This document shows, piece after piece, positions 7,817-58,274 of a stretch of 64,000 nucleotides of DNA. The first letter of the stretch is position 1. The number at the start of each line of letters is the position of its first letter. The notes below the pieces were generated by a model. That model did not search any database, was not told the DNA's origin, and saw only the letters and a list, made by a program, of their open reading frames with translations. The translations under genes and the position numbers were made by a program. The stretch is from Dehalococcoidia bacterium (GTDB taxonomy: Bacteria > Chloroflexota > Dehalococcoidia > Bin125): the NCBI GenBank assembly GCA_965215555.1, contig OZ244071.1:2517647-2581646 (forward strand). The letters run 5' to 3'.

Positions 7817-7963
7817 CCTGCTCCTCCTTCATCGCTGGCTGCCATCGCCGGCTGCCGCTCATCCTGCGGCCAATCGCTAGTATGGCGGAGGCCGCAACCT
7901 CTCGCGTTGGATGGCATGCGGCGGACGAGTAAAGGGCCGTGTGTTGGGAGTCGGGATCCAGCC

Positions 7964-10360: not shown

Positions 10361-10431
10361 GCGCGCAAGCTGAGCCGTGAAGCTCAGCCGACATGCTGAG
10401 CCTGAAGTTGGTCCGATCCTGAGGAGGAACC

Positions 10432-11394: not shown

Positions 11395-11537
11395 CGCTTC
11401 TCGCGTCGTCCTCATCGACTGAAGGTCGGATCCGAAGCAGCTCAACACCAACCTCGCCAAATCCGCGCTTGTCGCGGATATCTCGCGGCATCCTCAACAC
11501 TGGCCGTGACCGCGCAGATGGCGCAGAGCGACACGAA

Positions 11538-14090: not shown

Positions 14091-14274
14091 GTGTGCACGT
14101 TAGGTTTATGCGGGTGTTGGCGGTAGAGGTCAGGGTAGGCTGGGTTGGGGCCAGCTCGTCGGGGCGTTGGCCTTGAGACTAGGGCGCGTGGACGGGGAAA
14201 CTTGGGACTGAACCTCGGGCTTCGGGACCATGGGCGTCACCACTCACAGGCTGTCGACCGTCTAAAGTGGATGT

Positions 14275-21992: not shown

Positions 21993-22004
21993 ACTTCGTA
22001 CACT

Positions 22005-22820
22005 ATGACCGACCGCATTCGCGCTATCGATTCATTGATCAACTCCTCGTTCCTCGATCCCTCAGGCGACACTGCGTTGAGTTATCTGTTCAAGGACATT
22101 GAAGGACGCGGCGCGATCGAGACTGCCGAACAACTTCTGCAAGTGCTTGACCAGTCCGATATCGGCGCCGGTGTCGTTTCGATCATGCAGCCCGATCACG
22201 CCGAGTGGGTTGGCGATGCGCACAAGCAGTTTCCCGACAAGATCCTGCCCGCGATGATTGTCAATCCGCTCAACGGGTACGACGAAATCCGCAAGGTGGT
22301 CGATTACTACGAACGCTACGGAGTCCGCTGCCTGCGCATCCCGCCGTTCCGATACGAAATGCCGCCAACCGACCGCGTCTACTGGCCCTTCTACGTCAAG
22401 GCAATGGAACTTGACATCGCGGTCTCGATGAACGCTGGTATGCCTGGACCGCGTCGACCGGGATGGGTCCAGAACCCAATGCATTACGACGAGGTCGCCT
22501 ATCACTTCCCCGAGCTTCGCCTGATCATGACTCACTGCGGCCAACCGTGGATCGAGGAGACCATCTCAACCATCGCCCATTGGGATCATGTCTACATGTC
22601 CTGCACGTCGGTGGCGCCAAAGTACTGGCCACTCAACTTCGTCCAATTCATCAACACCCGGGGACGTCAGAAGATGATGTTCGGCACGGAGTACCCAACA
22701 ATCCCGTGGCCCAGGGCAAGAGACGAAATTGAGGCACTCCAACTTCGAGAAACAGTTGTAGACGACTTCTTCGTCGAGAACGCACGCCGAGCCTATCGCT
22801 GGAACGCTGACCCAAGCTAA
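22005..22820 (+). CDS. Amidohydrolase-2 (PF04909-like) family metal-dependent hydrolase
   Basis: TIM-barrel hydrolase motifs MTHCGQPW... and MFGTEYP. The N-terminal HxH is not obvious, so the family call is moderate. Confidence 0.55.
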   Translation: MTDRIRAIDSLINSSFLDPSGDTALSYLFKDIEGRGAIETAEQLLQVLDQSDIGAGVVSIMQPDHAEWVGDAHKQFPDKILPAMIVNPLNGYDEIRKVVDYYERYGVRCLRIPPFRYEMPPTDRVYWPFYVKAMELDIAVSMNAGMPGPRRPGWVQNPMHYDEVAYHFPELRLIMTHCGQPWIEETISTIAHWDHVYMSCTSVAPKYWPLNFVQFINTRGRQKMMFGTEYPTIPWPRARDEIEALQLRETVVDDFFVENARRAYRWNADPS

Positions 22821-28579: not shown

Positions 28580-28588
28580 GAGTTCACC

Positions 28589-29602
28589 ATGGTCACCAAC
28601 AACTTCGACTGGCTCGCAACCAACCAGGAGCCTGCATTCGACCCCGACCAGAAAATCATCGACCCGCATCATCACCTCTGGGATGGTCGCGAGGACGGGC
28701 GCCTGCTGCGCTACTTCCTCGACCAACTGCTCGAGGACACGGCCGACCTCAATGTCCGCCAGACCGTCTTCATCGAGTGTGGAGCGATGTACAACGCTGA
28801 CGCGCCGAAGCCGATGGCGCCGGTCGGAGAGACCGAGTACGTCGCTGGCGTCTCGGCTCAGAGCGCCAGCGGCATCTATGGCGAGATGCGCGCCTGCACC
28901 GGTATCGTTTCGCATGCCGACTTGCTGCTCGGCGCGGCCGTCGGCGAGGTGCTCGACGCGCATATGGAGATGAGTTCCCGCTTCCGAGGCATCCGCCATC
29001 ACGCCAGCTGGGATCCGTCGCCCGACGTGCCCAACTCGCGGATCGTGGATCAGCCGCACATCTACCTCAATGACGCCTACCGCGAAGGCTTCGCCGAGCT
29101 GGGCAAGCGCAACCTCAGCTTCGAAGGCTGGCTCTACCATCCACAAATCCCTGAACTGACCGACCTCGCCCGCGCCTTCCCCGACACCACGATCATCCTC
29201 AACCACCTGGGCGGACCGCTTGGCATCGGTCCGTACGCGGGTCGCCACGACGAAGTCTTCGCCGAATGGCGAGAGACCATCAGCGAACTTGCCACCTGCG
29301 AGAACGTGGTCGCCAAGGTCGGTGGCATCCAGATGGTGATCAACGGTTTCGGCTGGCACGAACGGGAACGAGCGCCATCCTCGGACGAGCTGCTGCAAGC
29401 CAATCGCCGCTGGTACGAGCACACCATCCAGGTCTTCGGTCCGAACCGTTGCATGTTCGAGAGCAATTTCCCCGTCGACAAGGCCTCATGCAGCTACACG
29501 AACATGTACAACCAGTTCTTCAAGCTGGTCGTCGACTATCCCCAGGACGAAAAGGATCAGATGTTCCACGACACCGCACAGCGGGTGTATCGGCTCGACT
29601 AG
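28589..29602 (+). CDS. Amidohydrolase-2 family hydrolase (LigI/LigJ/ACMSD-like TIM barrel)
   Basis: IIDPHHHLWDG N-terminal metal motif and a C-terminal FESNFPVD-type motif. Confidence 0.75.
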   Translation: MVTNNFDWLATNQEPAFDPDQKIIDPHHHLWDGREDGRLLRYFLDQLLEDTADLNVRQTVFIECGAMYNADAPKPMAPVGETEYVAGVSAQSASGIYGEMRACTGIVSHADLLLGAAVGEVLDAHMEMSSRFRGIRHHASWDPSPDVPNSRIVDQPHIYLNDAYREGFAELGKRNLSFEGWLYHPQIPELTDLARAFPDTTIILNHLGGPLGIGPYAGRHDEVFAEWRETISELATCENVVAKVGGIQMVINGFGWHERERAPSSDELLQANRRWYEHTIQVFGPNRCMFESNFPVDKASCSYTNMYNQFFKLVVDYPQDEKDQMFHDTAQRVYRLD

Positions 29603-30895: not shown

Positions 30896-31000
30896 TTGAT
30901 CATCGAATTGGACGCGGCTGTCACTCCTTGATCTGCCGCCCAGCGAACACCGTTATCCTCAATCCCGTACGACCCCACACCCGATAGATCGGACCCAACC

Positions 31001-32251
31001 ATGTCCTGGCGACCCAAGCGCATGAAGTTTGGACTCTTCCTCGCCCCATTCCACAGCGTCGGCGAGCATCCTACCCTCGCGCTCCAGCGCGACGTTGAGC
31101 TGATCGAGCACCTCGACGACCTCGGCTACGACGAAGCCTGGATTGGCGAGCACCACTCGTTTGCTCGCGAGATCATCTCCAATCCGATGATCTTCATCGC
31201 CGCGCTGGCCGAGCGGACCAAGCACATCAAGCTGGGCACCGGTGTCGTCTCGCTGCCCTACCACAATCCCTTGATGATCGCCGACGACCTGCTCCAGCTT
31301 GACCACATGACGCGCGGTCGCGTGATGCTCGGCGTTGGTCCCGGCGCACTCACCTCGGACGCGGTACAGATGGGCATCGAGCCGACCAGCCAGCGCAAGC
31401 GCATGGCCGAGGCCTTCGACGCCATCGTCCAGCTCGCCCGCGACGAAGAGCCGGTCTCGATGGAGACGGACTGGTTCTCGCTGACGGAGGCTCGCCTGCA
31501 GATGGCCTGGTACTCCGACCCGCATCCTGAGCTGGCCGTCGCCGTGATCCTGACGCCGTCCGGACCACAGCTCGCCGGTAAGCACGGTGCGAGTCTGCTC
31601 TCCGTCGCCGGCGCTGACTCCGAAGGCATGAAGCAAGTCTGGGACTGGTACGAAGAGGCCGCGACCGAGAACGGCCACGAAGTTTCGCGCAAGAACTGGC
31701 GCGTCGTGACGGCGATCCACATCGCGGAATCCCGAGCCCAGGCAATCGAAGACGTGCGCGCCGGATTCCTCAAGCGTGCTTACGTCGGCGATGTCCGAGA
31801 TCCCGGACGCCGAGGCGGCATCGCGTTGCAGATGGCCGACACCATTGAAGAAGCGATCGACAAGAATATGGTCATCGTCGGTTCCCCCGAGGACGCCGTC
31901 GACCAGATCGAGGCAATGCACGACCGCTCGGGCGGCATCGGCGGGCTGCTTGGGATGCACCATGAGTGGGCCTCGACCGACGCCACCAAGCGCAGCTTCG
32001 AACTGCTGATGCGCTACGTCGCGCCCAAGTACCAGGGTCAGCTCGACCGCCTCGTCGCCTCGCGGGACTTCGTCGAAGACCGTCAGCTCGACATCTTTGG
32101 CGCAGGTCAGAAGGCCATGGCCAAGGCCTTCTCCGATGCCGGCAAGGAACTGCCCGACGCCTTCAAGCAAGCCGCAGCCGACCGAGCCGCTCTCTCCAGC
32201 AACGGCACCGAAGCCCCCGCCGAAGCCGAGGCAGAGCCAGTCGCCGACTAA
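31001..32251 (+). CDS. LLM-class flavin-dependent oxidoreductase (third paralog)
   Basis: MKFGLFLAPFH...LGYDEAWIGEHH...GTGVVSLPYHNP. Ends in an Ala/Glu/Pro-rich tail. Confidence 0.8.
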   Translation: MSWRPKRMKFGLFLAPFHSVGEHPTLALQRDVELIEHLDDLGYDEAWIGEHHSFAREIISNPMIFIAALAERTKHIKLGTGVVSLPYHNPLMIADDLLQLDHMTRGRVMLGVGPGALTSDAVQMGIEPTSQRKRMAEAFDAIVQLARDEEPVSMETDWFSLTEARLQMAWYSDPHPELAVAVILTPSGPQLAGKHGASLLSVAGADSEGMKQVWDWYEEAATENGHEVSRKNWRVVTAIHIAESRAQAIEDVRAGFLKRAYVGDVRDPGRRGGIALQMADTIEEAIDKNMVIVGSPEDAVDQIEAMHDRSGGIGGLLGMHHEWASTDATKRSFELLMRYVAPKYQGQLDRLVASRDFVEDRQLDIFGAGQKAMAKAFSDAGKELPDAFKQAAADRAALSSNGTEAPAEAEAEPVAD

Positions 32252-35706: not shown

Positions 35707-35813
35707 TTGGCTGCTCCCTGTTCACTACACCGCGTCGGTGCCGCGGGTCACGGTCGTAAGATATGACCCAACGACCGATCACTGCTCAACATCCTCTAGG
35801 GAGGAAACCCGTT

Positions 35814-36122
35814 ATGCCGATGTACGAGTACAAGTGCCCCAGCTGCACCAACGTCTTTGATGTCCTGGCCAAGATGGGGCAGGCCCCAGAGTCACCCGAC
35901 TGCCCAGCCTGCGACGACGGAGTCGGCGACCGCGTCTTCGGCGCCGGCGTTGCGATCCACACCGGTTCCGGCGGATCCTCGTTTGACGACTTCGACATGG
36001 GAGCCATGGGAGACATGGGCATGCCCGACATGGGCGGCATGGGCATGGGAGGCCACGGTCACGACCACGGCCATAGCCACGACGACTTCGGCATGGGCGA
36101 CTTCGGCATGGACGATTTCTAG
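35814..36122 (+). CDS. FmdB-family zinc-ribbon protein with G/M/H/D-rich C-terminal tail
   Basis: MPMYEYKCPSC...CPAC zinc ribbon. GGGAGG RBS at 35798-35803. Tail GMGMGGHGHDHGHSHDDFGMGDFGMDDF. Confidence 0.7.
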   Translation: MPMYEYKCPSCTNVFDVLAKMGQAPESPDCPACDDGVGDRVFGAGVAIHTGSGGSSFDDFDMGAMGDMGMPDMGGMGMGGHGHDHGHSHDDFGMGDFGMDDF

Positions 36123-38667: not shown

Positions 38668-38717
38668 TTAACCGTTCCGCTATCGGCATAAGCTGAACAG
38701 AAGCCAAACTGATCGAT

Positions 38718-40292
38718 GTGCAGATGACTTCCAGACGCCGTGCCAAGATTGTCGCCACCCTCGGTCCGGCCTCGAGCGATCCGGCGACAGTCCTTGAACT
38801 CGTCCACGCCGGCCTCGATGTCGCCAGGATCAACTTCTCACACGGGGATGAATCCTCTTGGACCCGCGCCGTCCAGACCGTCCGCCGTGCCCAGGCCGAG
38901 ACGGGCAAGCCGGTGGCCGTTCTCGGCGATCTGCAGGGACCGAAGATTCGAATCGGCTCCGTGCCCGACGGCACCGAAATCGCGCGTGGAGAGCGAGTCG
39001 ACATTCTCGCTGGAAGCGACGCTGAAGCCGAGTATGACGGCAACTGCCTGGTCCTCAGTTGCAACTACGCGGCCCTCGTTGACGAGGTCGAGACCGGCGG
39101 GCGCGTGTACCTGCGCGACGGCGAACTCGATCTATTGGTCGAGGAGATCGTCGGCAGTCGGATCCGCACCACAGTCCGCGGCGGCGGCCTGCTGACCGCT
39201 CGGGCCGGACTACATGCGCCCGGGGCCGGCAAACAGTTGCCCGCGGTGACGGCGCGCGATCGCGAGCACATCGGCTTTGCCGTCCGTCACGGCTTCGACT
39301 TCCTCGCGCTCTCCTTCGTGCGCAGCGGCCTCGATCTGGCTGAGGCCAGCGCTGCAGTCCACGAAGCAGGCGGTGAACTCCCCTTGATCGCCAAAATCGA
39401 AACCCTCTCCGCCATTCAGGACCTGCAGGAGATCATCGCCGTCTCCGACGGCGTCATGGTCGCGCGCGGTGACCTCGGGGTGGAAGTCGGACCAGCCGAA
39501 GTGCCAGTTCTGCAGCGACAGATCATCGAAGCCGCCGGACGCGCCCTGTTGCCGGTGATCATCGCCACCCAGATGCTTGAATCGATGGTCCAGCGCCAGC
39601 GACCGACACGTGCCGAAGCCTCCGATGTCGCCAACGCTGTCTGGGACGGCGCCGACGCCCTCATGCTCTCCGCCGAGACCGCTGTCGGCCGCCACCCAGT
39701 CGAGGTCGTCGACATGATGGACGACATCATCCGCCGCGCGGAGTCCAGCGACGCTGGACGTACCGCCGTCGCCCGGCCAATCGAGCTCAAAGCCGACACC
39801 GCTCGAACCGTTGCCGTCGCCGTTGCCGCTGCCGTCGAGCAGCACCCGCAGGTTCGTGCGGTGATCGTCTTCACCATCAGCGGACGCTCAGGACGCCTGA
39901 TCTCCCACGTTCGTCTGCCGGTGCCCGTGCTCGTGCTCGCTCCTGGAGACGCAACCCTCCAGCGACTCGCGCTCATGTGGGGCGTCGAACCGCGCCATTG
40001 CCAACCGCCCGACGACATTGAGCAGATGCTCAGAGAGGTCGAACAAGCCGCAGTTGAAGCCCTCGAACTCAATCCAGGCGACCAGGTCGTACTCACCGGC
40101 GGATTCCCCCTGAGTCAGGGAGAGCCAACCAACTTCCTCAAACTCCACCAGATCCCCCCAACCCCTTCAACTTCTGGTGAAGGTGATCCTCCAGCCCCCT
40201 CTCACTCTGGTGAAGTTGATCCTCCAGTCCCCTCTCCCTCTGGTGAAGTTGACCCTCCAATCCCCTCTCCCTCTGGGAGAGGGTTAGGGTGA
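38718..40292 (+). CDS. pyk: Pyruvate kinase; the last about 40 codons run through a tandemly amplified REP-derived repeat
   Basis: KIVATLGPAS..., IAKIETLSAIQ..., MVARGDLGVE. Reading frame continues through 3 x 33-bp repeats (SGEGDPPAPSH / SGEVDPPVPSP / SGEVDPPIPSP) to the TGA inside gggTGAggg. Confidence 0.85.
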   Translation: MQMTSRRRAKIVATLGPASSDPATVLELVHAGLDVARINFSHGDESSWTRAVQTVRRAQAETGKPVAVLGDLQGPKIRIGSVPDGTEIARGERVDILAGSDAEAEYDGNCLVLSCNYAALVDEVETGGRVYLRDGELDLLVEEIVGSRIRTTVRGGGLLTARAGLHAPGAGKQLPAVTARDREHIGFAVRHGFDFLALSFVRSGLDLAEASAAVHEAGGELPLIAKIETLSAIQDLQEIIAVSDGVMVARGDLGVEVGPAEVPVLQRQIIEAAGRALLPVIIATQMLESMVQRQRPTRAEASDVANAVWDGADALMLSAETAVGRHPVEVVDMMDDIIRRAESSDAGRTAVARPIELKADTARTVAVAVAAAVEQHPQVRAVIVFTISGRSGRLISHVRLPVPVLVLAPGDATLQRLALMWGVEPRHCQPPDDIEQMLREVEQAAVEALELNPGDQVVLTGGFPLSQGEPTNFLKLHQIPPTPSTSGEGDPPAPSHSGEVDPPVPSPSGEVDPPIPSPSGRGLG

Positions 40293-40297
40293 GGGCG
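40174..40297. repeat. Three tandem 33-bp units derived from the ccctctccc-tctg-ggagaggg REP family, ending in a complete copy (tctgggagagggttagggtgagggc)
   Basis: Units at 40174-40206, 40207-40239 and 40240-40272. The canonical copy is at 40273-40297. Confidence 0.7.
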
Positions 40298-40325
40298 TGG
40301 GTCCCAGCACAAGAAGGAACATGAC

Positions 40326-40733
40326 ATGACAGACAATGCAGTCAACGCACCAGAGCTCAACGTTCAGATCGGCGATGCATGCGAGATTGACCCCGCAGCA
40401 GGCCCCATTGAGGCCCGTGAGGCCGATCCCAACGCCGATCGCGACGTCCTGCTCTACATCACCGTCTGGTGCGGCGACTGCCGCCGAGCGGTGCGCTTTC
40501 TCGACGAATTCGAGATCCCATACCGAACCATCGACATCGAAGAAGACACAGAAGCCGCTCGAGCGGTCGAGATGCACAATGGTGGCAGCCGCTCAGTGCC
40601 TACCATCCTGATCGATGGAGAGCACGTCGCCACCGAGCCCAGCCGAGCAGAACTCGTCAACATCTTCGGCGTTGTAGAAGAGGAAGCGACCCGCGGCGGC
40701 CGGAGTCCGTTCAGTCTGCTTCGTCGTCGCTGA
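40326..40733 (+). CDS. Glutaredoxin-like protein (NrdH/mycoredoxin-type, CxxC = WCGDC) with N-terminal extension
   Basis: VLLYITVWCGDCRRAVRFL...RSVPTILIDGEHV thioredoxin-fold pattern. Confidence 0.6.
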   Translation: MTDNAVNAPELNVQIGDACEIDPAAGPIEAREADPNADRDVLLYITVWCGDCRRAVRFLDEFEIPYRTIDIEEDTEAARAVEMHNGGSRSVPTILIDGEHVATEPSRAELVNIFGVVEEEATRGGRSPFSLLRRR

Positions 40734-41814
40734 TCACATGCACGTCCGCCGGCGCAAACCTCGCGACGGCCGCGTCTCCAACCGACAGTCCCAGCTCATC
40801 CCACATCGTCACCGGAGTATCAACGGTCAGTTGTAGCCGGCCACTCGTCAGGTTGGCCCGAACCACCGGCCCTCGAGGCCTGACCGTTTGCACAAATGTA
40901 CGAAGCTGATTCTCTGTCCCTGCTTCGGAGGGAACGCTTCCGCCCCCGTCCTGTGTCAGCACAATCCGCTCCGGCCGGACGCAGAGCAGCGCCGGCGATC
41001 CTGGAGCAATCGACTTCGCTGTCGACGCCAGACGAATGCCTCCCGCCTCGTAGACGCCCGACTCCGAGCGTCGCCCATGCCACAGGTTTTCCATCCCCAC
41101 AAACTCAGCGACCGCGCGGTCGGCGGGCCGTTCAAAGACCTCCGAGGGACGACCAGTCTGCCGCAGTTGTCCATCAATCAACAGAGCCGCCTCGTCTCCA
41201 AGGCGCAATGCTTCATCGCGGTCGTGTGTGACCAGCACCGTGGTCGGACGTGTCTCGGAGAGATTCTCGGCGAAGTCCTCAATCAACCCCTCCCGAGTCG
41301 GCGCGTCGACTCCCGCAAACGGCTCGTCCAGCAACATCACTTCCGGCTGCGAGGCAAAGGCTCGCGCCAAACTGACCCGCTGAGCTTCCCCGCCCGACAA
41401 CTGTCGCGCATGGCGTTGGGCCAACGAGGCAATCCCAAATCGCTCCAGCCAATGCTCTGCTAGCTCGCGCCGCCTTCGTTTACCGACCCCGCGCAGCCTG
41501 AGCGGCAGTTCAACATTCGCCTGAACCGACATGCTCAGCAACAGGGGTTCCTGGAACGCCGCCGACATCCGCCGCCGCGTGGCGACCGGATCGGCATTCA
41601 TCGGTTCGCCATCAAGCATCAGTGTTCCCTGAGATGGATGAAGCACAAGCTGCAGCGCGCCCAGGAGCGTCGACTTACCCGATCCATTGGGACCAAGTAC
41701 CACGGTCACCAATCCGCGAGGGATGTCCAGTTTGTCGATTTCCAGCACCGTCACGCGGCCGCGCTGAACGGCAATGTCCCGGATCTCCAGATGAGCGTCA
41801 GGGCGCGTTGTCAT
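40711..41814 (-). CDS. ABC transporter ATP-binding protein with C-terminal TOBE domain (TupC/ModC-like)
   Basis: Walker A GPNGSGKST, signature LSGGEAQRVSLARA, Walker B LLDEP. C-terminal TOBE-like beta domain. Confidence 0.8.
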   Translation of the reverse strand: MTTRPDAHLEIRDIAVQRGRVTVLEIDKLDIPRGLVTVVLGPNGSGKSTLLGALQLVLHPSQGTLMLDGEPMNADPVATRRRMSAAFQEPLLLSMSVQANVELPLRLRGVGKRRRRELAEHWLERFGIASLAQRHARQLSGGEAQRVSLARAFASQPEVMLLDEPFAGVDAPTREGLIEDFAENLSETRPTTVLVTHDRDEALRLGDEAALLIDGQLRQTGRPSEVFERPADRAVAEFVGMENLWHGRRSESGVYEAGGIRLASTAKSIAPGSPALLCVRPERIVLTQDGGGSVPSEAGTENQLRTFVQTVRPRGPVVRANLTSGRLQLTVDTPVTMWDELGLSVGDAAVARFAPADVHVISDDEAD

Positions 41815-42509
41815 GTGATCGGCCGACGCTGCTGCACGGTCGTCAGCACCAGGTTGACGATGAACGCCAGCAGGACCAACACCAGCGACAGTGCAATCGC
41901 GACCTCAAAGTTGCCGCGGCCCGTCTCCAGCACCGTCGCGGTCGTCAGCACGCGAGTCTCGCCGGCGAGATTGCCGCCAACCTGCATCGATGCGCCCACC
42001 TCGGAAATCGCTGCCCCAAACCCGGCCATGACCGCCGCCAACAGGCCAAGCCGAGTCTCGCGCACGAGCAGCCACAGCACTTGCAACCGGTTCGCGCCCA
42101 TCGCCCACATCTGCCCAATCAATCGAGGATTTACCGACTGAATCGAAGCAAGCGAAAAGCCCACCACCATCGGCAGACTCAGCAACAACTGAGCCACCAC
42201 CATCGCCGTAGGCGTATAGATCAGGTTCAAGTCACCCAGGGGCCCGGTTCGCCAGAGGATCAGCGCGACCAACAAGCCAATCGCCACCGGAGGCATGCCC
42301 ATGCCCGTGTTGACTGCCGCAACGATCAATCCTCGTCCCCAGAAGCGCCGCAGAGCCAACACCGCGCCGAGCGGAATCCCAACGATCAATGCCAACGCCG
42401 TCGCCGAGGCGGAAATCGCCAGAGTCCGCAAGGTGATCTCAATGATCTCCCCATCGCCCGACCACCACAGCCGAGCCGCCTCACGAATCCCATCCCAGAT
42501 CAACTCCAT
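41811..42509 (-). CDS. ABC transporter permease, TupB-like (tungstate/molybdate-type)
   Basis: Five TM segments plus a GNFEVAIALSLVL-type C-terminus. Stop overlaps the ATPase start. Confidence 0.7.
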   Translation of the reverse strand: MELIWDGIREAARLWWSGDGEIIEITLRTLAISASATALALIVGIPLGAVLALRRFWGRGLIVAAVNTGMGMPPVAIGLLVALILWRTGPLGDLNLIYTPTAMVVAQLLLSLPMVVGFSLASIQSVNPRLIGQMWAMGANRLQVLWLLVRETRLGLLAAVMAGFGAAISEVGASMQVGGNLAGETRVLTTATVLETGRGNFEVAIALSLVLVLLAFIVNLVLTTVQQRRPIT

Positions 42510-42564
42510 GTCGCGATCCTACTTGCGGGCCCGTGCTACACCGTGCCAACGAGATTCATATCGT

Positions 42565-42668
42565 TCCGAGCTCGTGTAGGGGCGACCCTTGTGGTCGACC
42601 GCGTTGGGAGCCCTATCTGGTCTGTGTTGCCTTCGCCGACACGGGCGACCACAAGGGTCGCCCCTACG
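42565..42668. repeat. Perfect 22-bp inverted repeats (gtaggggcgacccttgtggtcg ... cgaccacaagggtcgcccctac) separated by about 45 nt, in the tupA-tupB intergenic region
   Basis: Direct reading of the sequence. Could form a long stem in the polycistronic mRNA. Confidence 0.55.
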
Positions 42669-42702
42669 GGGTGGTTGACACTGTGTCGCCAGGCACCAGC
42701 TC

Positions 42703-43596
42703 TCAGCCCGACGCCCCACTTCGAGCCGCTATCGACGCCTCAGTCTCGCCCGCAGCCGGGATGAACAACGGCCGACCGTACTCCTCGCGCAGATACTCGC
42801 CGATCATCGCCTGGATGTCCTCGCGCAGCAGGAACTCCTTGAATGCTGCTGCCCCGACCGTATTGATCCGCCCCTTCGCCCCATCGACCTCCATCACGCT
42901 GTAGAAGTTCAGCAATAGCGGATCTCCTTCGACCAGAGGAGTCAGCCCACCGATATCTTCGGACAGCGACAGGTACGTTCCACGGTCAGTCAAGGTGTAC
43001 GCGCCTCGTTGGTTGGCGACGGTCAGCGTCGCCGACATGCCCTGTCCCACTTCCAGGTACCACTCGTCGTTATCGACCGACGGCGACAACCCTGCCTCCT
43101 CCCACAGCGACCGCTCCTTCTTGTGAGTGCCGCTGTCATCTCCGCGCGACGCAAAGACTGCTTCCGCTCTCGCAATCTGGATCAACGCCTCGGACACATC
43201 GTCCATCCCCGCGACACCTGCCGGATCATCCAGCGGCCCGACAATCACAAAATCGTTGTACGCCACCAGGACCCGGCTCGTCACATCGCCCGCGTCGACC
43301 AGCATCTGCTCCGAGACGGGCGCGTGCGTCAACAGCACATCCGCATTGCCTTCGGCTCCCATCCGCAACGCAGCACCAGTGCCGACAGAGATGATCTTGA
43401 CCGTGATCCCCGCTTCGTCCTCGAAAATGGGCACCAGCTCGTCGAGCAGTCTCGAGTCGTTCAGCGATGTCGTTGTGGCGAGGATCAGCTCGTCCTCGTT
43501 GTAGCCAGTCTCACCGTCGCAGGCGGACGTCAGACCGACCGCCAGAGCGGCGAACAGCAACCACACGCCCAGTACGGGTACTCGGCTCATTCCCAC
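42703..43596 (-). CDS. Tungstate-type ABC transporter substrate-binding lipoprotein (TupA/WtpA-like)
   Basis: Signal plus lipobox LTSAC. TTTSLNDSRLLDELVPIFE...VGTGAALRMGAEGNADVLLTHAP closely resembles the TupA signature TTTSTxDSGLL...VGTGxAL..G..G.ADVLL.HA. Confidence 0.7.
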   Translation of the reverse strand: MGMSRVPVLGVWLLFAALAVGLTSACDGETGYNEDELILATTTSLNDSRLLDELVPIFEDEAGITVKIISVGTGAALRMGAEGNADVLLTHAPVSEQMLVDAGDVTSRVLVAYNDFVIVGPLDDPAGVAGMDDVSEALIQIARAEAVFASRGDDSGTHKKERSLWEEAGLSPSVDNDEWYLEVGQGMSATLTVANQRGAYTLTDRGTYLSLSEDIGGLTPLVEGDPLLLNFYSVMEVDGAKGRINTVGAAAFKEFLLREDIQAMIGEYLREEYGRPLFIPAAGETEASIAARSGASG

Positions 43597-43608
43597 TCCC
43601 CCGATGGA

Positions 43609-44922
43609 CTAGTCCCCGGAGGTGATCATCCCTGCGCCGACGGTGGCTGATGTCGCTTCATCGATCAGGATGAACGCCCCTGTTTCCCGCGACTCAGCGT
43701 ATGGGTCAACAGACAATGGAGCCATGAGCCGAAGCCGGACCCGACCGATCTCATTCAACGACAGTTGAGACGCGGTGAGGTCGTAATCGAGCGTGTTGAC
43801 ATCCAGGCGAGCGCCAACCTCTTCCACCATCGCACGAGTCGTCTGCGTCGTCTGCTTGACCACCAGCCGATCCCGCGTACGCAGAGGCACTCGATCACTC
43901 ATCCAGCAAATGTGAGCGTCAATCGAGGAAGCGGCGACCGGCGGATGCTCGGCCGACACGATCATCGACCCGCGCCGTACATCCAACTGATCGGCCAGTT
44001 GAACCGTGATCGCCATCGGAGGCGTGGCCTCCGCCAACTGCTGATCGAACGCATCTATGGCGGCAACCGTCGTCTCTGCGCCCGAAGGCATCACCTTCAC
44101 GCGGTCTCCAACTCTGAGCACGCCCGAGGCCATCGTCCCCGCATATCCGCGATAGTCGTGAAACTCGTCGCGCAACGGACGAATCACATACTGCACCGGA
44201 AACCGCGACGCATGATGTTGTGGCGGCTCCGACGCCTCCAGCGTCTCCAACAGTTCCAACAGCGGCGGACCGTCGTACCACGGCATTCGCTCCGACGGCT
44301 CCACGACCCAGTCGCCAAACTTCGCCGAGATCGGGATGGCGCGTACGTCAGTCACGCCCATGCGCGAGGCGAACCGAGTCAACTCCTCCGTAATCTCTGC
44401 AAACACCGCCTGATCCCAGCCGACCAGGTCCATCTTGTTCACGCAGACCACGAAGTGCCTGATGCCCAGCAGATTGGACAGATAGGCATGACGTCGGGTC
44501 TGTTCCAGCACCCCGCGCCGCGCATCAACCAGCAACAGCGCGGCGTCCGCCGTCGATGCGCCGGTGACCATGTTGCGCGTGTACTGCACGTGACCCGGCG
44601 TGTCGGCCAGAATGAATTTGCGACGGGGCGTGGAAAAGTATCGATACGCCACGTCGATCGTGATGCCCTGTTCGCGCTCCGAGCGAAGACCATCGGTCAG
44701 ATAGGCCAGGTTGACATCTTCCTCACCGCGAGTCCGCGATGTCCGCTCAATCGCCTCCATCTGGTCAATAAACGTCTGCTTGGAATCAAACAGCAGGCGA
44801 CCAATCAGCGTCGACTTGCCGTCGTCCACCGATCCCGCCGTCGCCAGACGCAGCAGCGTTCGCTGATCTGGTCCCAGGGGATCGGCAAGCGTGCCATTCA
44901 GGCTTGAGTGCTCAGTCGTCAC
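43609..44922 (-). CDS. cysN: Sulfate adenylyltransferase subunit 1 (CysN GTPase)
   Basis: GSVDDGKSTLIGRLL, DTPGH, NKMD GTPase motifs. CysN-specific C-terminal beta-barrels. Confidence 0.9.
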   Translation of the reverse strand: MTTEHSSLNGTLADPLGPDQRTLLRLATAGSVDDGKSTLIGRLLFDSKQTFIDQMEAIERTSRTRGEEDVNLAYLTDGLRSEREQGITIDVAYRYFSTPRRKFILADTPGHVQYTRNMVTGASTADAALLLVDARRGVLEQTRRHAYLSNLLGIRHFVVCVNKMDLVGWDQAVFAEITEELTRFASRMGVTDVRAIPISAKFGDWVVEPSERMPWYDGPPLLELLETLEASEPPQHHASRFPVQYVIRPLRDEFHDYRGYAGTMASGVLRVGDRVKVMPSGAETTVAAIDAFDQQLAEATPPMAITVQLADQLDVRRGSMIVSAEHPPVAASSIDAHICWMSDRVPLRTRDRLVVKQTTQTTRAMVEEVGARLDVNTLDYDLTASQLSLNEIGRVRLRLMAPLSVDPYAESRETGAFILIDEATSATVGAGMITSGD

Positions 44923-45845
44923 TAGAAATACCCCTCGCGCTTGCGATCTTCCATCGCCGCCTCCGAGAATCGGTCATCGGCCCGCGTCTCGCCGCGCTCG
45001 GTGATGCGCGTTGCCGCAATCTCTGCCACCACCGCGTCGAGCGTTTCAGCTTGGGACCGCACTCCGGCTGTACAGGTCATGTCGCCGACCGTACGAAACC
45101 GCACGCGCGCATCAAACGGATCTTCGTTGGGCAGGCGCGGCACAAAGTCGGAGACGGGAAAGATCATCCCGTCGCGTTCGAACATCGACCGGTTGTGCGC
45201 GTAGTAGATCGAAGGAATCTCCAGCCTCTCGCGCTTGATGTACTGCCAGACATCGAGCTCGGTCCAGTTGGACAGGGGAAACGCTCGGATGTGCTCGCCG
45301 CGAGTCAGGCGGCCGTTATACAGATTCCAGAGCTCGGGGCGTTGATTAGACGGGTCCCACTGCCCAAACGCATCGCGGAACGAGAAAATCCGTTCCTTCG
45401 CCCGCGCCTTCTCCTCGTCCCGCCGAGCGCCGCCAAAGAGCGCATCAAAGTTGTGCTCCAGCACAGCGTCCAGCAATGTGACGGTTTGCAAGCGGTTACG
45501 AGAAGCTCGCGGTCCTACCTCTTCGACCACCCGACCCTGGTCAATCGATTCCTGCACCGAGGCGACAATCAGCTCCAGTTCCAGCTCCGCCGCCCGCCGA
45601 TCGCGAAATTCAATCGCCTCGGGAAAGTTGTGGCCAGTGTCGACGTGCATCACGGGAAACGGAATCCGTGCCGGCCAGAACGCCTTCTCGGCCAGTCGCA
45701 GCATGACAATCGAGTCTTTGCCGCCCGAGAACAGCAGACACGGTCGCTCCAGTTCCGCCGCAACCTCGCGGATGATGTGGATTCCTTCTGCCTCCAGCCA
45801 GGACAGCGTGTCCAGGGAGGCAGGTCGGCTCGCAGTCGTGGTCAT
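44922..45845 (-). CDS. cysD: Sulfate adenylyltransferase subunit 2 (CysD)
   Basis: SGGKDS PP-loop and the HVDTGHNFPE motif. Start at ATG 45845 (MTTTASRP...). Confidence 0.9.
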   Translation of the reverse strand: MTTTASRPASLDTLSWLEAEGIHIIREVAAELERPCLLFSGGKDSIVMLRLAEKAFWPARIPFPVMHVDTGHNFPEAIEFRDRRAAELELELIVASVQESIDQGRVVEEVGPRASRNRLQTVTLLDAVLEHNFDALFGGARRDEEKARAKERIFSFRDAFGQWDPSNQRPELWNLYNGRLTRGEHIRAFPLSNWTELDVWQYIKRERLEIPSIYYAHNRSMFERDGMIFPVSDFVPRLPNEDPFDARVRFRTVGDMTCTAGVRSQAETLDAVVAEIAATRITERGETRADDRFSEAAMEDRKREGYF

Positions 45846-46015
45846 CTCGTCTTCACCGCATTCCCCGGTTCTCACCGCATTGCCAAGTCAATCTTGACAA
45901 ACATTACTAGATCACTCATATATGAATCCAGCGACTACCCTACTTGCCAGTGCAACGAATTACAGATCGGTAGCGAATCGACACCGATCGCGAAAAGACT
46001 CGACAAGAGGTGGGC

Positions 46016-48763: not shown

Positions 48764-49198
48764 ATGTCTGCCGACGAATCGAGTCAAGACTCCTCCAACG
48801 ATCGCGGCGCCGTGCTCGAAGCCAATCGTGCGTTCTATGAGGCATTCAACGCTCGTGACATCGAAGCCATGGCCGACCTCTGGCAACGCGGCGACGACGT
48901 GACCTGCATTCACCCGCACCGCAACGTGACCAGGGGACATGCCGACATCCAACGCACCTGGCGCGCCATCCTGACGAACCCGGACCAGCCCAAGATTGTC
49001 TTCGCCGCTGAGGAAGCACGAGTCGTCGGCGATATTGGCATCGTCGCCGGACGCGAGGTCGTGGCCGGCGTGCCGATCGTCGCCACCAACATCTACCAAC
49101 GCTCGCAGAGCGCCGACCTGACCGACAACGCTGACACACCGGACAACACCTGGCTGCTAATCCATCATCACGGCAGCCCGGTCCTGCATACCGACTAA
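48764..49198 (+). CDS. NTF2-like / SnoaL-like small protein (DUF4440-type)
   Basis: LEANRAFYEAFNARDIEAMADLW typical of SnoaL-like folds. ATG 48764 is in frame within ORF 48578..49198. Confidence 0.55.
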   Translation: MSADESSQDSSNDRGAVLEANRAFYEAFNARDIEAMADLWQRGDDVTCIHPHRNVTRGHADIQRTWRAILTNPDQPKIVFAAEEARVVGDIGIVAGREVVAGVPIVATNIYQRSQSADLTDNADTPDNTWLLIHHHGSPVLHTD

Positions 49199-49247
49199 CC
49201 CCACCGCCCATCGCCAAAGAGCACGAACAAGCACGAAAGAGCACGCC

Positions 49248-49721
49248 ATGCCCGTCACTCTCGCCAAAGGCGACCAGGCGCCCGACTTCCAACTCCCCGA
49301 CCAGGACGGCAAGACGCACAAGCTTGCCGATTATGCCGGTCAGACCGTGGTCCTCTACTTCTATCCCCGCGACGACACCCCAGGTTGCACCAAGCAGGCC
49401 TGCTCCTTGCGCGACGACATGTCCGAGATCCAGGCCGAGGGAGCGGTCGTACTCGGCGTCTCAGCCGACGACGCCGACTCACACCAACAGTTCCGCGCCA
49501 AGTACGATCTCAACTTCCCGCTGCTGGTTGATTCCGATACAGAAGTCTCGACCAGTTACGGCGCCTGGGGGGAAAAGACGCTCTACGGGCGCAAGAGCAT
49601 AGGCATGACCCGTGCTACCTTCATCATCGGACCGGATGGCGTGCTGACGAAAGTCTGGAAACGCGCCAAGGCCGCCGATCATGGCCAAGCGGTCCTCAAG
49701 GCCTTGCGGGCAGGCCGTTAA
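49248..49721 (+). CDS. bcp: Peroxiredoxin Bcp (thioredoxin-dependent thiol peroxidase)
   Basis: GDQAPDFQLPDQDGKTHKLADYAGQTVVLYFYPRDDTPGCT. Confidence 0.85.
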   Translation: MPVTLAKGDQAPDFQLPDQDGKTHKLADYAGQTVVLYFYPRDDTPGCTKQACSLRDDMSEIQAEGAVVLGVSADDADSHQQFRAKYDLNFPLLVDSDTEVSTSYGAWGEKTLYGRKSIGMTRATFIIGPDGVLTKVWKRAKAADHGQAVLKALRAGR

Positions 49722-53791: not shown

Positions 53792-53872
53792 GCTAGCTCT
53801 TGCTAGGCCCCGGTCTGCATCTCGCCACTACCATCAGCGAAGGCAGGCAACATCTACGGCGGAGGCCTCTAC

Positions 53873-54769
53873 ATGGTACTTGAACAACAGGTCACACTGA
53901 TCACTGGCGCATCCCGCGGCTTCGGCCTCGCCGCTGCGGAAGAACTGATCGATCGCGGTCACCTGGTCATTGCCACCATGCGCAATCCCGATCGTGATCG
54001 CAACAACCTCTCCAACCTCGATCCAGCGGCCTACGAGATCGCCCAATGCGATGTCACCGATCCTGCCTCGATCGACGCCGCCGTCAGCGCGGGACTCAAA
54101 CGCTTCGGCCGCGTCGACGCGCTCTTCAACAACGCCGGCTACGGACTCTACGGCCCGGTCGAGGACATGTCCGACGACGAAGTCATGCGCCAGATGGACA
54201 CTAACTTCATCGGCCAGATTCGTATGGCCCGAGCTGTCTTGCCCGCGATGCGAGACCAACACCACGGCAAGATCATCAATGTCTCCTCGCTCGCCGGACG
54301 TATCGTCGCGCCGATGATGGGTCTCTACGCGGCCTCAAAGTGGGCCGTCGAAGCCATGTCCGAAGCGCTGCGCTACGAAGTCTCGCGCTGGAACGTCGAT
54401 GTCACGATCCTCGAACCAGGCATGTACGCCTCCGACTGGCAGACGACCAACCTCGATGTCGCCGAGGCCGTACGCGAGGGGCGCTCGCCGTACCAGGAAT
54501 CCGCCGAGCACGCGCTCAACACATTCCGCACCAGAGCGGCAACCCGCCCCGGCTCCCGCTCCGTCGCCACGGCCGTCGCCGACATCGTCGAACTCGAACA
54601 GCAACTCCCCATGCGCTGGCCCGTCGGAGAAGACACCATCCAAACCATCCGCCTCCGAGAAGCCATGACCGACCAGGAATGGGAAGCCCGAGTCCGAGGA
54701 GACACCAAGATCTACCGAGGAGCCTTCTTCCACGGAGTCGAGAATCCCATGGAAGACAAACCCCGCTGA
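53873..54769 (+). CDS. SDR family oxidoreductase
   Basis: TGASRGFGLAAA Rossmann motif, NNAG, YAASK catalytic motif. Confidence 0.85.
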   Translation: MVLEQQVTLITGASRGFGLAAAEELIDRGHLVIATMRNPDRDRNNLSNLDPAAYEIAQCDVTDPASIDAAVSAGLKRFGRVDALFNNAGYGLYGPVEDMSDDEVMRQMDTNFIGQIRMARAVLPAMRDQHHGKIINVSSLAGRIVAPMMGLYAASKWAVEAMSEALRYEVSRWNVDVTILEPGMYASDWQTTNLDVAEAVREGRSPYQESAEHALNTFRTRAATRPGSRSVATAVADIVELEQQLPMRWPVGEDTIQTIRLREAMTDQEWEARVRGDTKIYRGAFFHGVENPMEDKPR

Positions 54770-55146: not shown

Positions 55147-55737
55147 CTACCCGTGCTTACCGACGCTCCAGCCCGCCTGCGCCAGGTGCGCATCCGAGAA
55201 CTCCACGGCGTCCGGCTCCAGCTCGTTCGCCAACGTGTCGTTGAACCGATTGAGGAATCCGAACATCGAGACCACGCTGACGATCTCAACGATCTCCGAC
55301 TCGCTCCAGTGCTTGGCCAATTCCTCGAACTGCTCATCGGTCGCTGCATTCGGGACGACGCCGGAGTCACGCGCCACGCGCAAGGCCGCGCGTTCGGCGT
55401 CGCTGAACAGATCTGACGTCTCAAACGACCAGACCGCCTCGACGCGGTCGTAGGTTTCGCCTGCCAGCGTGTGGGCGAAGTGACCGGTGTGCGCCTGGCA
55501 GTACAGACATCCCGCCGATCGCGAGACCACATGCGCGATGAGTTGCTTCAGTCCCGCCGGCACGTCGCCCTCACGCATGATCGAACCGAAGAACGGCTGA
55601 AACGCCTCAAGAATCTTCGGGCGTCGGCCGAGTACGTGGAACGAAGTTGGGATCGTGATCCCGGCCTCCTGCATCGGCGCCAGAAACGGCGCGGCCTCCA
55701 TCAGTTCGGCGCTAGTCAGTGGGGTCACGCGGTTCAT
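55147..55737 (-). CDS. Carboxymuconolactone-decarboxylase / AhpD-like peroxidase-related protein
   Basis: CLYCQAH (Cxx[CH]) core motif. 196 aa. Start overlaps the stop of the upstream methyltransferase (ATGA). Confidence 0.75.
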   Translation of the reverse strand: MNRVTPLTSAELMEAAPFLAPMQEAGITIPTSFHVLGRRPKILEAFQPFFGSIMREGDVPAGLKQLIAHVVSRSAGCLYCQAHTGHFAHTLAGETYDRVEAVWSFETSDLFSDAERAALRVARDSGVVPNAATDEQFEELAKHWSESEIVEIVSVVSMFGFLNRFNDTLANELEPDAVEFSDAHLAQAGWSVGKHG

Positions 55738-56597
55738 CGGGTCCTCCAGCGAATCAGTTGCTGTGTCGGTCGATCAGGAAGTGCCCAGCGACCATCTTCT
55801 TCGACCAGTATCGCGTCTATCGCCTCGCGCAGAAGAGGCAGCTTGGCCGAGTCCTCCGCCAACCACAAGCGCCGACGCCCCCACTGCAGCGCCTCATCGA
55901 ACGAGTCGAACGACCAGCGAACCCGCGTCGATCCAGCGATCGGCGACACATCGACCGTCGCACCGCGTGCCCGCAACAGCGCCACGAGGTCCTCCCCGCC
56001 TGGCAATTGGACATGTTCCTCGTCGTGCACCATCGGCCACGCCTGCCAAAACAGCGACCCCGGCGCGCGGTCAAACGTCAACGCCATACACTCACGCCGC
56101 GCCGACCGATCCAGCGTGTCCAGAAACTCGGCGATCTGCTCGATGTCATAACCGACGTGGGAAATCAGCGCCACATCGGCAATCTCGTCCAACGCAGGAT
56201 CGTCAGTCGGCCATCGCTCGTCACGGATATCGACCTTGAAGATGCCGTGCTCGGTCTGGAGCTGCGCCAGTTCGGCCCGCATCGCAGGTGATGGCTCGAC
56301 CGCGATCACGCGGGCGACATGCAGCGCCAACGGCAGCGCGAACCGTCCCGCGCCAGCACCGACGTCGAGCCAGACATCGGTCGGCTCAGACAGCGCGCGC
56401 AGCGCGTCGAGGGCAGGGTCATCGCTGCGACGCGGGTCAGCTCGAAACGCGCTCGCGAGCGGGCGATAATGATCGCCGCCGTCCGATTCTTCACGTAGAC
56501 GCTCAGCCTGCTCCCGATTCCCCGCGACACGCTCAGCCCACGTTTGCGTCAACCGTTGCGCCGTTTGACCGTTGGCGCTGGAGTAAACTTCGCTCAT
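55734..56597 (-). CDS. Class I SAM-dependent methyltransferase
   Basis: LDVGAGAGRFALPLA motif I. Start taken at ATG 56597 (MSEVYSS). The longer ORF would overlap PAC2 by 47 nt. Confidence 0.65.
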   Translation of the reverse strand: MSEVYSSANGQTAQRLTQTWAERVAGNREQAERLREESDGGDHYRPLASAFRADPRRSDDPALDALRALSEPTDVWLDVGAGAGRFALPLALHVARVIAVEPSPAMRAELAQLQTEHGIFKVDIRDERWPTDDPALDEIADVALISHVGYDIEQIAEFLDTLDRSARRECMALTFDRAPGSLFWQAWPMVHDEEHVQLPGGEDLVALLRARGATVDVSPIAGSTRVRWSFDSFDEALQWGRRRLWLAEDSAKLPLLREAIDAILVEEDGRWALPDRPTQQLIRWRTR

Positions 56598-57480: not shown

Positions 57481-57578
57481 CTGCCAACGTGTCGCAGCGC
57501 CTCGCAGCGCCTCGCAGCGCCAGGTCGTAGAGTGAAGTTGCCGACCCAGGAGATATTCGGTTAGATGGGTGGAGCGCG

Positions 57579-58040
57579 ATGACAGATGTTGAACGAGTCA
57601 GTGACGACGATCTGCAACAGGCGTCCGAGAAGAATCTGAACAAGATGCGCAAGTTCGCGACCAACTTCGCGAACAAGAGCGGCTCCTACCTGCATCCACA
57701 GGAAGACATCACCGAGTTTTTGGTCATCGGACTGGCCAAGCACATCGACGACTACGGCCGTCCGCTCTGTCCCTGCAACTTCTACGAGGACAAGGCTGAA
57801 GAGGTCAAGGAATCCACCTGGATCTGTCCCTGCGAGGAAATGCAGCGTTGGAAGTACTGCCATTGACTGCTCTTCTGCGATGAGGAAGGTCTTCCCATCA
57901 CCGAGCACCTACCCAAAGATCACGAAGGCGTCCAGATCTACGGAATCCGCCCCGACCCCCATCCGGACAAGGGCCGAGCCCTCGGCCGCCTGGAAGAACA
58001 AAGCGGTCGCAAGATCGACAAACGCAAACGCCGCGACTAA
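57579..58040 (+). CDS. Ferredoxin:thioredoxin reductase catalytic-subunit-like protein with in-frame UGA at the third Cys of the CHC motif (candidate selenoprotein; alternatively a nonsense pseudogene)
   Basis: MRKFATNFANKSG...GRPLCPCNFYEDKAEEVKESTWICPCEEMQRWKYCH-TGA-LLFCDEEGLPITEH... aligns to FTRc CPC..CPC..CHC-LLF. 57 further in-frame codons (GC3 about 70%) run to TAA 58038-58040. Confidence 0.55.
57879..57899 (+). ncRNA. SECIS-like hairpin (GAUG-A-GGAA-GGUC-UUCC-CAUC) 12 nt downstream of the in-frame UGA
   Basis: 8-bp stem with one bulged A and a GGUC tetraloop. The GGUC loop and 5' bulge resemble E. coli fdhF bSECIS, offset by one codon. Confidence 0.3.
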
Positions 58041-58047
58041 CCCTACG

Positions 58048-58162
58048 CCCCGTCATTGCCGCGCTCCGACGCGGCAATCTCGCCGGAATCAGCGCTAACG
58101 CTTGCGGCTACGTGAGTTCTGGCTTCGGCGAGATACCCGCGGCATGCGCAGGTATGACGTTA
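58048..58162. repeat. REP-like element (attgccgcg-ctccga-cgcggcaat hairpin plus an inverted copy of the gtcatacc..gcgggtatctc module)
   Basis: 58128-58157 is the reverse complement (with about 2 mismatches) of 60155-60185. Confidence 0.5.
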
Positions 58163-58274
58163 TCTTGGCGCTGCTTCGCTACTCATGTGTGTGTGAAATC
58201 ATGGACTAGCCCGACCACTCCGATTGCCACTACGCTCACAACAGCAATTCAAGTGACCAACCACTGGACGACGC

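Follow-up and report, generated by a model that had tools for sequence, protein, structure and literature searches.

A ferredoxin:thioredoxin reductase homolog with a predicted selenocysteine at the position of Cys87 in Dehalococcoidia

The gene and its relation to the classical catalytic subunit

We analysed a stretch of 64,000 nucleotides from contig OZ244071.1 of a Dehalococcoidia bacterium (assembly GCA_965215555.1; hereafter, the window). One of its genes (57579-58040, + strand) encodes a homolog of the catalytic subunit (FTRc) of ferredoxin:thioredoxin reductase (FTR), in which a TGA stands at the codon of a redox-active cysteine, a candidate site for selenocysteine (Sec) inserted by means of a Sec insertion sequence (SECIS). 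The gene is a 153-codon frame with a sole in-frame TGA (57864-57866), and its residues are laid out as C64-P-C66, 16 residues, C83-P-C85, 8 residues and C94-H95, directly followed by the TGA. Past this codon the frame reads LLFCDEEGLPITEH... and remains open for 57 codons, up to a TAA, with a third-position GC of 0.70 (0.71 upstream of the TGA). The initial annotation, made from the letters of the window, had described this frame (CPC-x16-CPC-x8-CH-TGA, 57 further codons, TAA at 58038-58040) and a third-position GC of about 70% past the TGA, and both were reproduced. Coordinates of the gene and of the other features discussed here are collected in Table 1.

The core of the product is a bona fide FTRc. 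When the 153-residue read-through product was searched against Pfam profiles with a Cys put at the TGA, it matched PF02943 (FeThRed_B) with 89.6 bits (cutoff 22, E 1.7e-25) over residues 20-103, a match that runs across the UGA. The product also aligned without any gap to the FTRc of Synechocystis (1DJ7) and Arabidopsis (7BZK), with 43% identity, and in this alignment C64, C66, C83, C85, C94 and H95 are paired with C55, C57, C74, C76, C85 and H86 of Synechocystis FTRc and the TGA falls on Cys87. The FTR motif CPC-x16-CPC-x8-CHC is kept with identical spacing, its sixth position being UGA (Sec) instead of Cys87. By alignment, C64, C83, C85 and C94 are the predicted cluster ligands and C66 the predicted redox partner, and H95 is conserved. 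The two claims on which the initial annotation was built, that the gene codes for an FTR catalytic subunit and that its TGA coincides with Cys87, are both borne out by these alignments.

The FTRc fold was tested on a Cys homolog that served as a stand-in for the window protein (P0003, 70% identical to it). Its AlphaFold model has a predicted local distance difference test score (pLDDT) of 90.7 and superposes on 7BZK_A and 1DJ7_A with a root-mean-square deviation of 0.9 A over 88-89 columns. Block-averaged pLDDT exceeds 90 for approximately residues 81-140, which covers most of a C-terminal extension of about 50 residues; this extension is modeled with high confidence and has no counterpart in the FTRc chains. 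The fold and the motif are those of FTRc, and the UGA lies inside that motif. We found no gene for the variable subunit FTRv (FeThRed_A) among the 59 open reading frames (ORFs) of the window scanned against Pfam, the neighbours of the gene being PAC2 and ribosomal protein S14. This is as expected, since FTRv is reported to occur in oxygenic phototrophs only (PMC9025218); the heterodimer therefore marks the plant and cyanobacterial holoenzyme and not the bacterial FTRc family.

Table 1. Positions of the features discussed, in the window unless a related locus is named
Feature	Position	Strand	Remarks
Putative ribosome-binding GGAG, Shine-Dalgarno-like	57571..57574	+	4 nt upstream of the start codon; read from the letters
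Coding part 1, codons 1-95, ATG start at 57579	57579..57863	+	Corresponds to the 95-aa product of gene callers and GenBank
UGA codon 96, predicted to be read as Sec, at Cys87 of FTRc	57864..57866	+	Alignment; same TGA in relatives
Coding part 2, codons 97-153	57867..58037	+	Includes Cys100 (U-x-x-x-C) and the ~50-residue clade-specific C-terminal extension
Predicted SECIS element	57868..57907	+	Fold, compensatory changes, rare codons, fdhF-like loop
True stop TAA	58038..58040	+	Sequence; homologous stop in relatives
G+C-rich hairpin past the true stop	58055..58078	+	ATTGCCGCG, 6-nt loop, CGCGGCAAT; read from the sequence; no T-run
EF-Tu-like GTPase, CysN-like	43612-44973	-
PAPS_reduct protein, CysD-like	44925-45887	-
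CoA-transferase III, luciferase-like and Amidohydro_2 regions	6584-14099, 332-1486, 30932-32248, 21993-22817, 28580-29599
FmdB-type zinc ribbon	35760-36122	+
AhpC/TSA peroxiredoxin	49161-49721	+
CMD/AhpD-like protein	55150-55773	-
Glutaredoxin-like protein	40293-40733	+
tRNA-Sec, examples in related loci	L010 741-837; L239 58-154; L217 7680-7776; L016 4792-4888; L061 5184-5280
Thioredoxin gene, examples in related loci (L099, L217, L191, L067)	~350-550 nt past the TGA	opposite strand

Recurrence of the UGA codon and conservation of the downstream frame and hairpin

We searched GTDB species genomes and metagenome contigs with the degenerate DNA pattern Y-C-H-TGA-L-L-F-x4-G-x-P, which matched in at least 119 of the former and at least 120 of the latter. 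With the exception of two chance matches (L115 and L145), these are FTR-like genes with a conserved continuation of 52-90 codons, and the same TGA followed by an intact downstream frame is found in at least some 240 independent loci. Nearly all of the genome matches listed belong to Dehalococcoidia or other Chloroflexota, with a few in Entotheonella. The listed public loci comprise 190 distinct 66-nt segments, so they are not copies of one contaminant, and the proteins of the TGA loci diverge down to about 60-70% identity. The TGA arrangement, shared by at least some 240 independent public loci, lies far beyond chance.

A protein search returned mostly Cys homologs from Dehalococcoidia (CHC-LLFV), and with them 95-residue "proteins" ending in YCH (P0065 and P0082, the latter with 75 member sequences). 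The GenBank entry for 57579-57866 is of this truncated kind (MCY4618455.1, 95 aa, named "ferredoxin--nitrite reductase"), and one ENA gene call of 152 residues (P0001; L003 675-1133) renders the UGA as Trp, apparently through a code-4 prediction. The DNA behind these truncated and Trp calls has TGA at that codon and the full downstream frame. Mis-annotation of the Sec-containing FTR (Sec-FTR) genes extends across many metagenome-assembled genomes (MAGs) as well as complete chromosomes, and the present reading corrects a systematic annotation error across well over 100 Chloroflexota species.

Eleven close relatives share the exact 95-residue N-terminal part of the window protein and its synteny (PAC2, FTR, rpsN (S14), SBP). 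Contigs of 1-6 Mb, for instance ERZ25069711:ctg17293 and OZ244861.1, also encode the identical 95-aa N-terminal product. The initial annotation had called for a comparison of orthologs at this column, where relatives that all carried TGC, together with frameshifts or stops downstream in the strain of the window, would have spoken against Sec; both TGA forms and Cys forms (CHC-LLF) were found, and 11/11 close relatives have TGA at codon 96 and an intact frame to a stop at codon 154 (TAA, TAG or TGA). Pairwise codon differences past the TGA amount to 449 synonymous vs 113 nonsynonymous in these relatives (about 4:1), and their alignment breaks down directly past the true stop. When all 205 distinct sequences are considered, conserved downstream residues are encoded by up to six synonymous codons. 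The downstream frame is under purifying selection, and from these patterns in the sequences we infer that it is translated.

In a rough neighbour-joining tree with Fitch parsimony (182 Sec and 112 Cys core sequences), the two forms are interleaved and at least 11 Sec/Cys switches are counted; such switching is typical of Sec/Cys dynamics. One MAG, Dehalococcoidia bacterium SJ354, carries both Sec forms (L067 and L084; JADLFF010000031 and 057) and a Cys form (L247; JADLFF010000061). Among the related loci fetched, none had a Cys paralog. Four residues past the UGA (U+4; Cys100 of the window protein, 57876-57878), 142/205 distinct Sec forms have a Cys (U-L-L-F-C), and in the Cys forms this column is Cys in only 4/~116, the others having Val. 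The sequences are consistent with a Cys at U+4 that may have co-evolved as a resolving or protecting cysteine. Outside Chloroflexota, Sec-FTR genes were found in MAGs of Candidatus Entotheonella (Entotheonellaceae; L026 and L053) and in metagenome loci (L185 and L228); these genes have their own hairpin variant, AGGCG-GUU-CGCCU, and suggest horizontal spread or a wider distribution.

Directly past the UGA, the window RNA can fold into a hairpin with a minimum free energy of -13.4 kcal/mol. Its lower stem pairs 57868-57872 with 57903-57907, and its upper stem-loop (57879-57899), a hairpin placed 16 nt past the UGA, is GAUG-A-GGAA / UUCC-CAUC, in which the A at 57883 is bulged. GGUC forms the apical loop (57888-57891; nt 25-28 counted from the U of the UGA), 21 nt past the UGA. 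Among 79 distinct hairpin variants, the stem GAUG/CAUC changes to GACG/CGUC and GGAA/UUCC to GGCA/UGCC, GGAC/GUCC or GGGGA/UCCCC, and UCGGAA/UUCCGA also occurs, all of them compensatory; a change of I to V is accompanied by GAU to GAC plus the compensating base. Loop columns 25 and 26 are G in 79/79 variants, and at least 90% of the variants have U as the third loop base. When the window structure was imposed on the 79 variants, 76.7% of the cells were paired, vs 26-48% with slid partners, and 63 cells were changed on both sides, vs 42.8 +/- 4.4 in shuffles, none of which (0/500) reached the observed number. In the NPEG subfamily the hairpin is shifted, GUAAACCC-GGA-GGGUUUAC, with a GGA loop.

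Codon choice within the hairpin provides evidence that is independent of the peptide. The Gly codon at position +8 is GGT in 188/205 sequences (92%) vs 9-12% at the other Gly codons of the gene; likewise, Leu+9 is CTT in 145/189 (77%) vs 1-8% at other Leu codons, and Asp+5 is GAT in 81/93 (87%) vs 21-27% at other Asp codons. Glu+7 is GAA in 143/158. Conservation was judged by such codon statistics, fixed-structure pair counts and per-sequence folds, and the hairpin is conserved at the RNA level. The SECIS-like hairpin put forward in the initial annotation is thus supported by compensatory changes, forced rare codons and the GGUC loop.

Decoding of the UGA, genomic neighbourhood and alternative explanations

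UGA is an ordinary stop elsewhere in the window. At least 10 window ORFs with Pfam support end in TGA (for instance pyruvate kinase, 38697-40292, and a short-chain dehydrogenase, 53807-54769), and in the orthologs L256 and L258 TGA is found at codon 96 and, as the terminator, once more at codon 154. Because TGA terminates these genes, UGA decoding is context-dependent and the code is not reassigned.

Genes for the Sec machinery and for a possible substrate adjoin the gene in related loci. In 38 of the ~237 related loci listed, the Sec-FTR gene has a tRNA-Sec(UCA) gene 0.47-4.8 kb upstream of it, as both ARAGORN and Rfam RF01852 (66-74 bits) confirm; about 22 of these 38 tRNA genes are in divergent orientation, just 100-200 nt away from the start codon of the FTR gene. 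No selA, selB or selD was seen beside selC in the loci examined (L217, L191, L061 and L016). Dehalococcoidia MAGs with 46-49 selenoprotein genes have been reported, numbers that rank with the highest in bacteria (PMC13326102). Directly past the Sec-FTR gene, a gene for a WCGPC thioredoxin stands tail-to-tail in 61 of the 189 loci with enough flank, and a gene for a 317-residue Pyr_redox_2 (TrxR-like) flavoprotein is adjacent in 18 loci (for example L016 2855-3805); neither neighbour is present in the window. This genomic context in related loci supports thioredoxin as a probable substrate.

Several results weigh against Sec insertion directed by the hairpin. The 64-kb window, the part of the genome that was searched, holds no selA, selB, selD or tRNA-Sec (it has no tRNA gene at all, and none of the 59 ORFs contains a SelA, SelB or SelD domain), a scan of the window for in-frame TGA with coding-like flanks revealed no other selenoprotein gene, and the clade of the window, with its synteny PAC2, FTR, rpsN, is without the selC and trx neighbours. 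Taken alone, the window hairpin has no significant extra stability compared to shuffles (z = -1.2). Rfam, run on the whole window at gathering thresholds and with E up to 10 on 57500-58200, matched neither a SECIS nor any other RNA family of relevance. RNAalifold recovered only two G-C pairs from the ungapped fixed-register alignment of the 79 sequences, a low yield because loop size and stem register vary between subfamilies. Finally, of five distinct DNAs of Cys forms that served as a control, 3/5 have a hairpin at the same segment (-8.5 to -13.8 kcal/mol) and 2/5 do not.

We weighed four other explanations against this evidence. A single sequence would be compatible with a nonsense mutation of recent date, with a pseudogene or with a sequencing error, the downstream frame surviving since the mutation is young, and gene callers and GenBank do stop at the TGA; but the same codon is TGA in all of the ~240 or more loci, despite protein divergence down to ~60-70% identity, the downstream frame is intact with its 4:1 synonymous excess, the tree intermixes the Sec and Cys forms and needs at least 11 switches, and the 190 distinct segments rule out one contaminant as the origin, which leaves this explanation a negligible probability. 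It is also highly improbable that the TGA is a true terminator, the 95-residue product ending in Cys-His being functional and the downstream part conserved untranslated for another reason. Such a product is what the public "ferredoxin--nitrite reductase" entries of 95 aa and the 75 sequences of cluster P0082 depict, but it would have no second active-site residue, and downstream variation is codon-periodic, with amino acids conserved and third positions free; moreover, the downstream frame matches the C-terminal part of the Cys homologs residue by residue and similarity collapses past a homologous stop. Given the intact frame, the synonymous excess and the diversity of synonymous codons, we regard both explanations, the recent mutation and the real 95-residue product, as excluded for practical purposes.

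If the frame is read through, the UGA could specify a residue other than Sec, be it Trp or Gly if the code were reassigned, Cys if a tRNA-Sec-like suppressor acted, or the outcome of near-cognate read-through. One public gene call (P0001) does read the codon as W, the inserted residue is beyond the reach of computation and the Sec machinery was not seen in the window; we nevertheless consider this improbable, given that TGA ends other Pfam-supported genes of the window and the same gene in L256 and L258, that recoding invariably affects the position of the redox-active Cys, that a selected hairpin with a SelB-type GGUC loop follows the UGA and that a canonical tRNA-Sec(UCA) adjoins the gene in 38 loci. 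The hairpin, for its part, could be a mere by-product of the conserved peptide D/N-E-E-G-L-P-I, with read-through relying on another signal, as the z of only -1.2, the lack of an Rfam SECIS match and the hairpins of Cys forms would allow. Indeed, because 3/5 Cys forms show hairpin potential, part of the pairing may be owed to the codons for E-E-G-L-P or be a relic. As a full account this is very improbable: stem and loop are fixed to codons (GGT, CTT, GAT) that these genes seldom use at other sites, GGT at the loop Gly codon is found in 0/5 Cys-form DNAs, amino-acid changes are paired with compensatory base changes, and a subfamily with another peptide (NPEG) rebuilds a different hairpin with its GGA loop.

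Altogether, these results make it very probable that 57579-58040 encodes a 153-residue single-subunit enzyme of the FTRc type, whose codon 96, UGA, is decoded through the SECIS as Sec in place of Cys87. We infer from the sequences that selenium, rather than another residue, is found at position 96, and the decoding mechanism is predicted to be the standard bacterial one. The choice between Sec and a nonsense mutation that the initial annotation had posed thus falls to Sec, on account of the at least ~240 loci, the selection and the SECIS, and the recent mutation is rejected; the part of that claim that did not stand is the novelty of the family, as discussed below.

Other features of the window were recorded alongside. 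The G+C-rich hairpin past the true stop is a possible transcript-end structure; it was not picked up by the consensus terminator scan, and consensus terminator and promoter scans made no calls. Relatives carry the same or a different hairpin at the equivalent spot: the loop of the window version (ATTGCCGCG-CTCCGA-CGCGGCAAT) is reverse-complemented (TCGGAG) in L258, and L256, L262 and L263 have an unrelated hairpin, CCTCCCCC...GGGGGAGG. The other in-frame TGA candidates of the window were rejected as shadows of opposite-strand genes, and the ORF pairs joined by TGA at 4058-4060 and 40290-40292 were rejected as selenoproteins since they are merely consecutive genes. On the - strand, genes for sulfate assimilation are clustered at 40714-45887 (an ABC ATPase, a permease, a PBP_like_2 binding protein, an EF-Tu-like GTPase and a PAPS_reduct protein). 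Its EF-Tu-like GTPase was considered as a SelB and rejected: it is CysN, because it adjoins the PAPS_reduct gene and a sulfate-type ABC transporter. The window also contains several CoA-transferase family III genes (two long ORFs have two such domains each), luciferase-like monooxygenases and Amidohydro_2 genes, a gene content that we take to be typical of SAR202-type Chloroflexota. Cys members of families with Sec forms elsewhere are present as well, namely an FmdB-type zinc ribbon (CPSC...CPAC), an AhpC/TSA peroxiredoxin and a CMD/AhpD-like protein (CxxC); the window further has a glutaredoxin-like protein (CGDC).

Proposed mechanism and comparison with known systems

FTR-type enzymes reduce disulfides by means of a [4Fe-4S] cluster. 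In FTRc, the active-site disulfide is formed by Cys87 and Cys57; Cys87 ligates a cluster iron in the one-electron intermediate and Cys57 attacks thioredoxin, a mechanism reportedly worked out by Dai et al. in 2000 and 2007. By analogy, the window enzyme would use the same cluster chemistry, with ferredoxin as the donor and thioredoxin as the acceptor. The hairpin past the UGA would recruit SelB carrying Sec-tRNA(Sec), and Sec96, in the role of Cys87, would form a Se-S bridge to Cys66, the cluster being held by Cys64, Cys83, Cys85 and Cys94 next to the conserved His95. One electron from ferredoxin would open the Se-S bridge; Se would then bind a cluster iron, yielding an Fe-Se intermediate, and the Cys66 thiolate would attack the thioredoxin disulfide; a second electron would free the selenolate, so that the mixed disulfide would be resolved and reduced thioredoxin released.

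A bolder proposal, which we put forward tentatively and consider somewhat short of an even chance, is that these genes form an independently evolved, undescribed clade of single-Sec, near-classical FTRc across much of Chloroflexota, in which selenium replaces the cluster-binding thiol only (hence an Fe-Se intermediate), often with a Cys at U+4 and, in many genomes, with linkage to selC and trx. If true, a ferredoxin-driven selenoenzyme would be a core thioredoxin reductase of the abundant Dehalococcoidia of the sea, of sponges and of the subsurface and would offer a natural selenium probe of the FTR mechanism. With selenium only at the position that bonds to the cluster in catalysis, the clade would be a natural system in which to ask why Sec is preferred there. 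The recurrent neighbourhood of tRNA-Sec and thioredoxin suggests that the enzyme is a central selenium user in abundant uncultured bacteria.

The hairpin is best compared to the SECIS of E. coli fdhF, whose sequence we confirmed in 5,413 E. coli genomes (100% identity). Both hairpins lie within the coding sequence, immediately 3' of the UGA, and carry GGUC as their apical loop, and the fdhF apical element GCAGGUCUGC is found as an identical 10-mer in the LLFVNEAG subfamily of the present genes; however, the loop spans nt 22-25 in fdhF and starts at nt 25 here, and the stems are otherwise unrelated. In the fdhF SECIS, SelB contacts the loop G and U and the bulged base, and the window hairpin, like the fdhF element, has a one-base bulge.

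At the protein level, the window enzyme shares with the FTR-fold FDR proteins (the Methanosarcina acetivorans FDR, 4TPU, and the Desulfotalea glutaredoxin-FDR fusion, 7PWE) a single-chain, FTRv-less organization in non-phototrophs. Nevertheless, identity to these proteins is only 22-25%, with a TM-score of ~0.4, and in contrast to the window enzyme they carry fused rubredoxin or glutaredoxin domains and an active site made of Cys only. The classical FTRc (the Synechocystis 1DJ7 and 2PVO series and Arabidopsis 7BZK) is closer, since its core aligns without gaps at 43% identity, with CPC-x16-CPC-x8-CH[C/U]-[LM]LF and the His kept. It differs from the window protein, which has Sec for Cys87, no variable subunit and a conserved extension of ~50 residues, and whose host is a non-photosynthetic Chloroflexota bacterium.

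Sec-containing homologs of the FTR catalytic subunit were reported as a new selenoprotein family in Global Ocean Sampling (GOS) data by Zhang and Gladyshev 2008 (PMC2398784), in a form with Sec at both redox-active positions, CPU...CIU (Dataset S2 of the same paper). Selenoproteome reviews of 2022 and 2026 list the family with the motif CxU and two Sec, as NCBIfam NF041072, "FtrB family double-selenoprotein". For this reason, the candidate new selenoprotein of the initial annotation is not new as a family. The window protein resembles NF041072 in being an FTRc homolog with UGA-encoded Sec at the last C-x-C position (C-x-U) and in having a predicted bacterial SECIS downstream, with G in the apical loop. 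Yet it has one Sec (CHU) where NF041072 has two, its first site being TGC, that is, Cys (CPC); it scores 43.2 bits against an equivalog cutoff of 160, is 26% identical to the published GOS sequence, and has the long C-terminal extension that the published form (a 104-residue read) is without. No description of a single-Sec FTR in Chloroflexota or SAR202 was found in the searchable literature, although BSepDB may already hold entries; the Sec-FTR family is unmentioned in Peng 2016, and Mukai 2017 has nothing relevant on the UGA recoding seen here. The clade of the window (single Sec, CPC...CPC...CHU, Chloroflexota) is distinct and large and appears to be undescribed in the literature. With it, the Sec-FTR family grows from a few marine double-Sec reads to a large single-Sec clade that is nearer to the textbook enzyme, and the window gene is one of a known kind, the Sec-containing FTR homologs, within a distinct clade of that kind rather than a new selenoprotein family.

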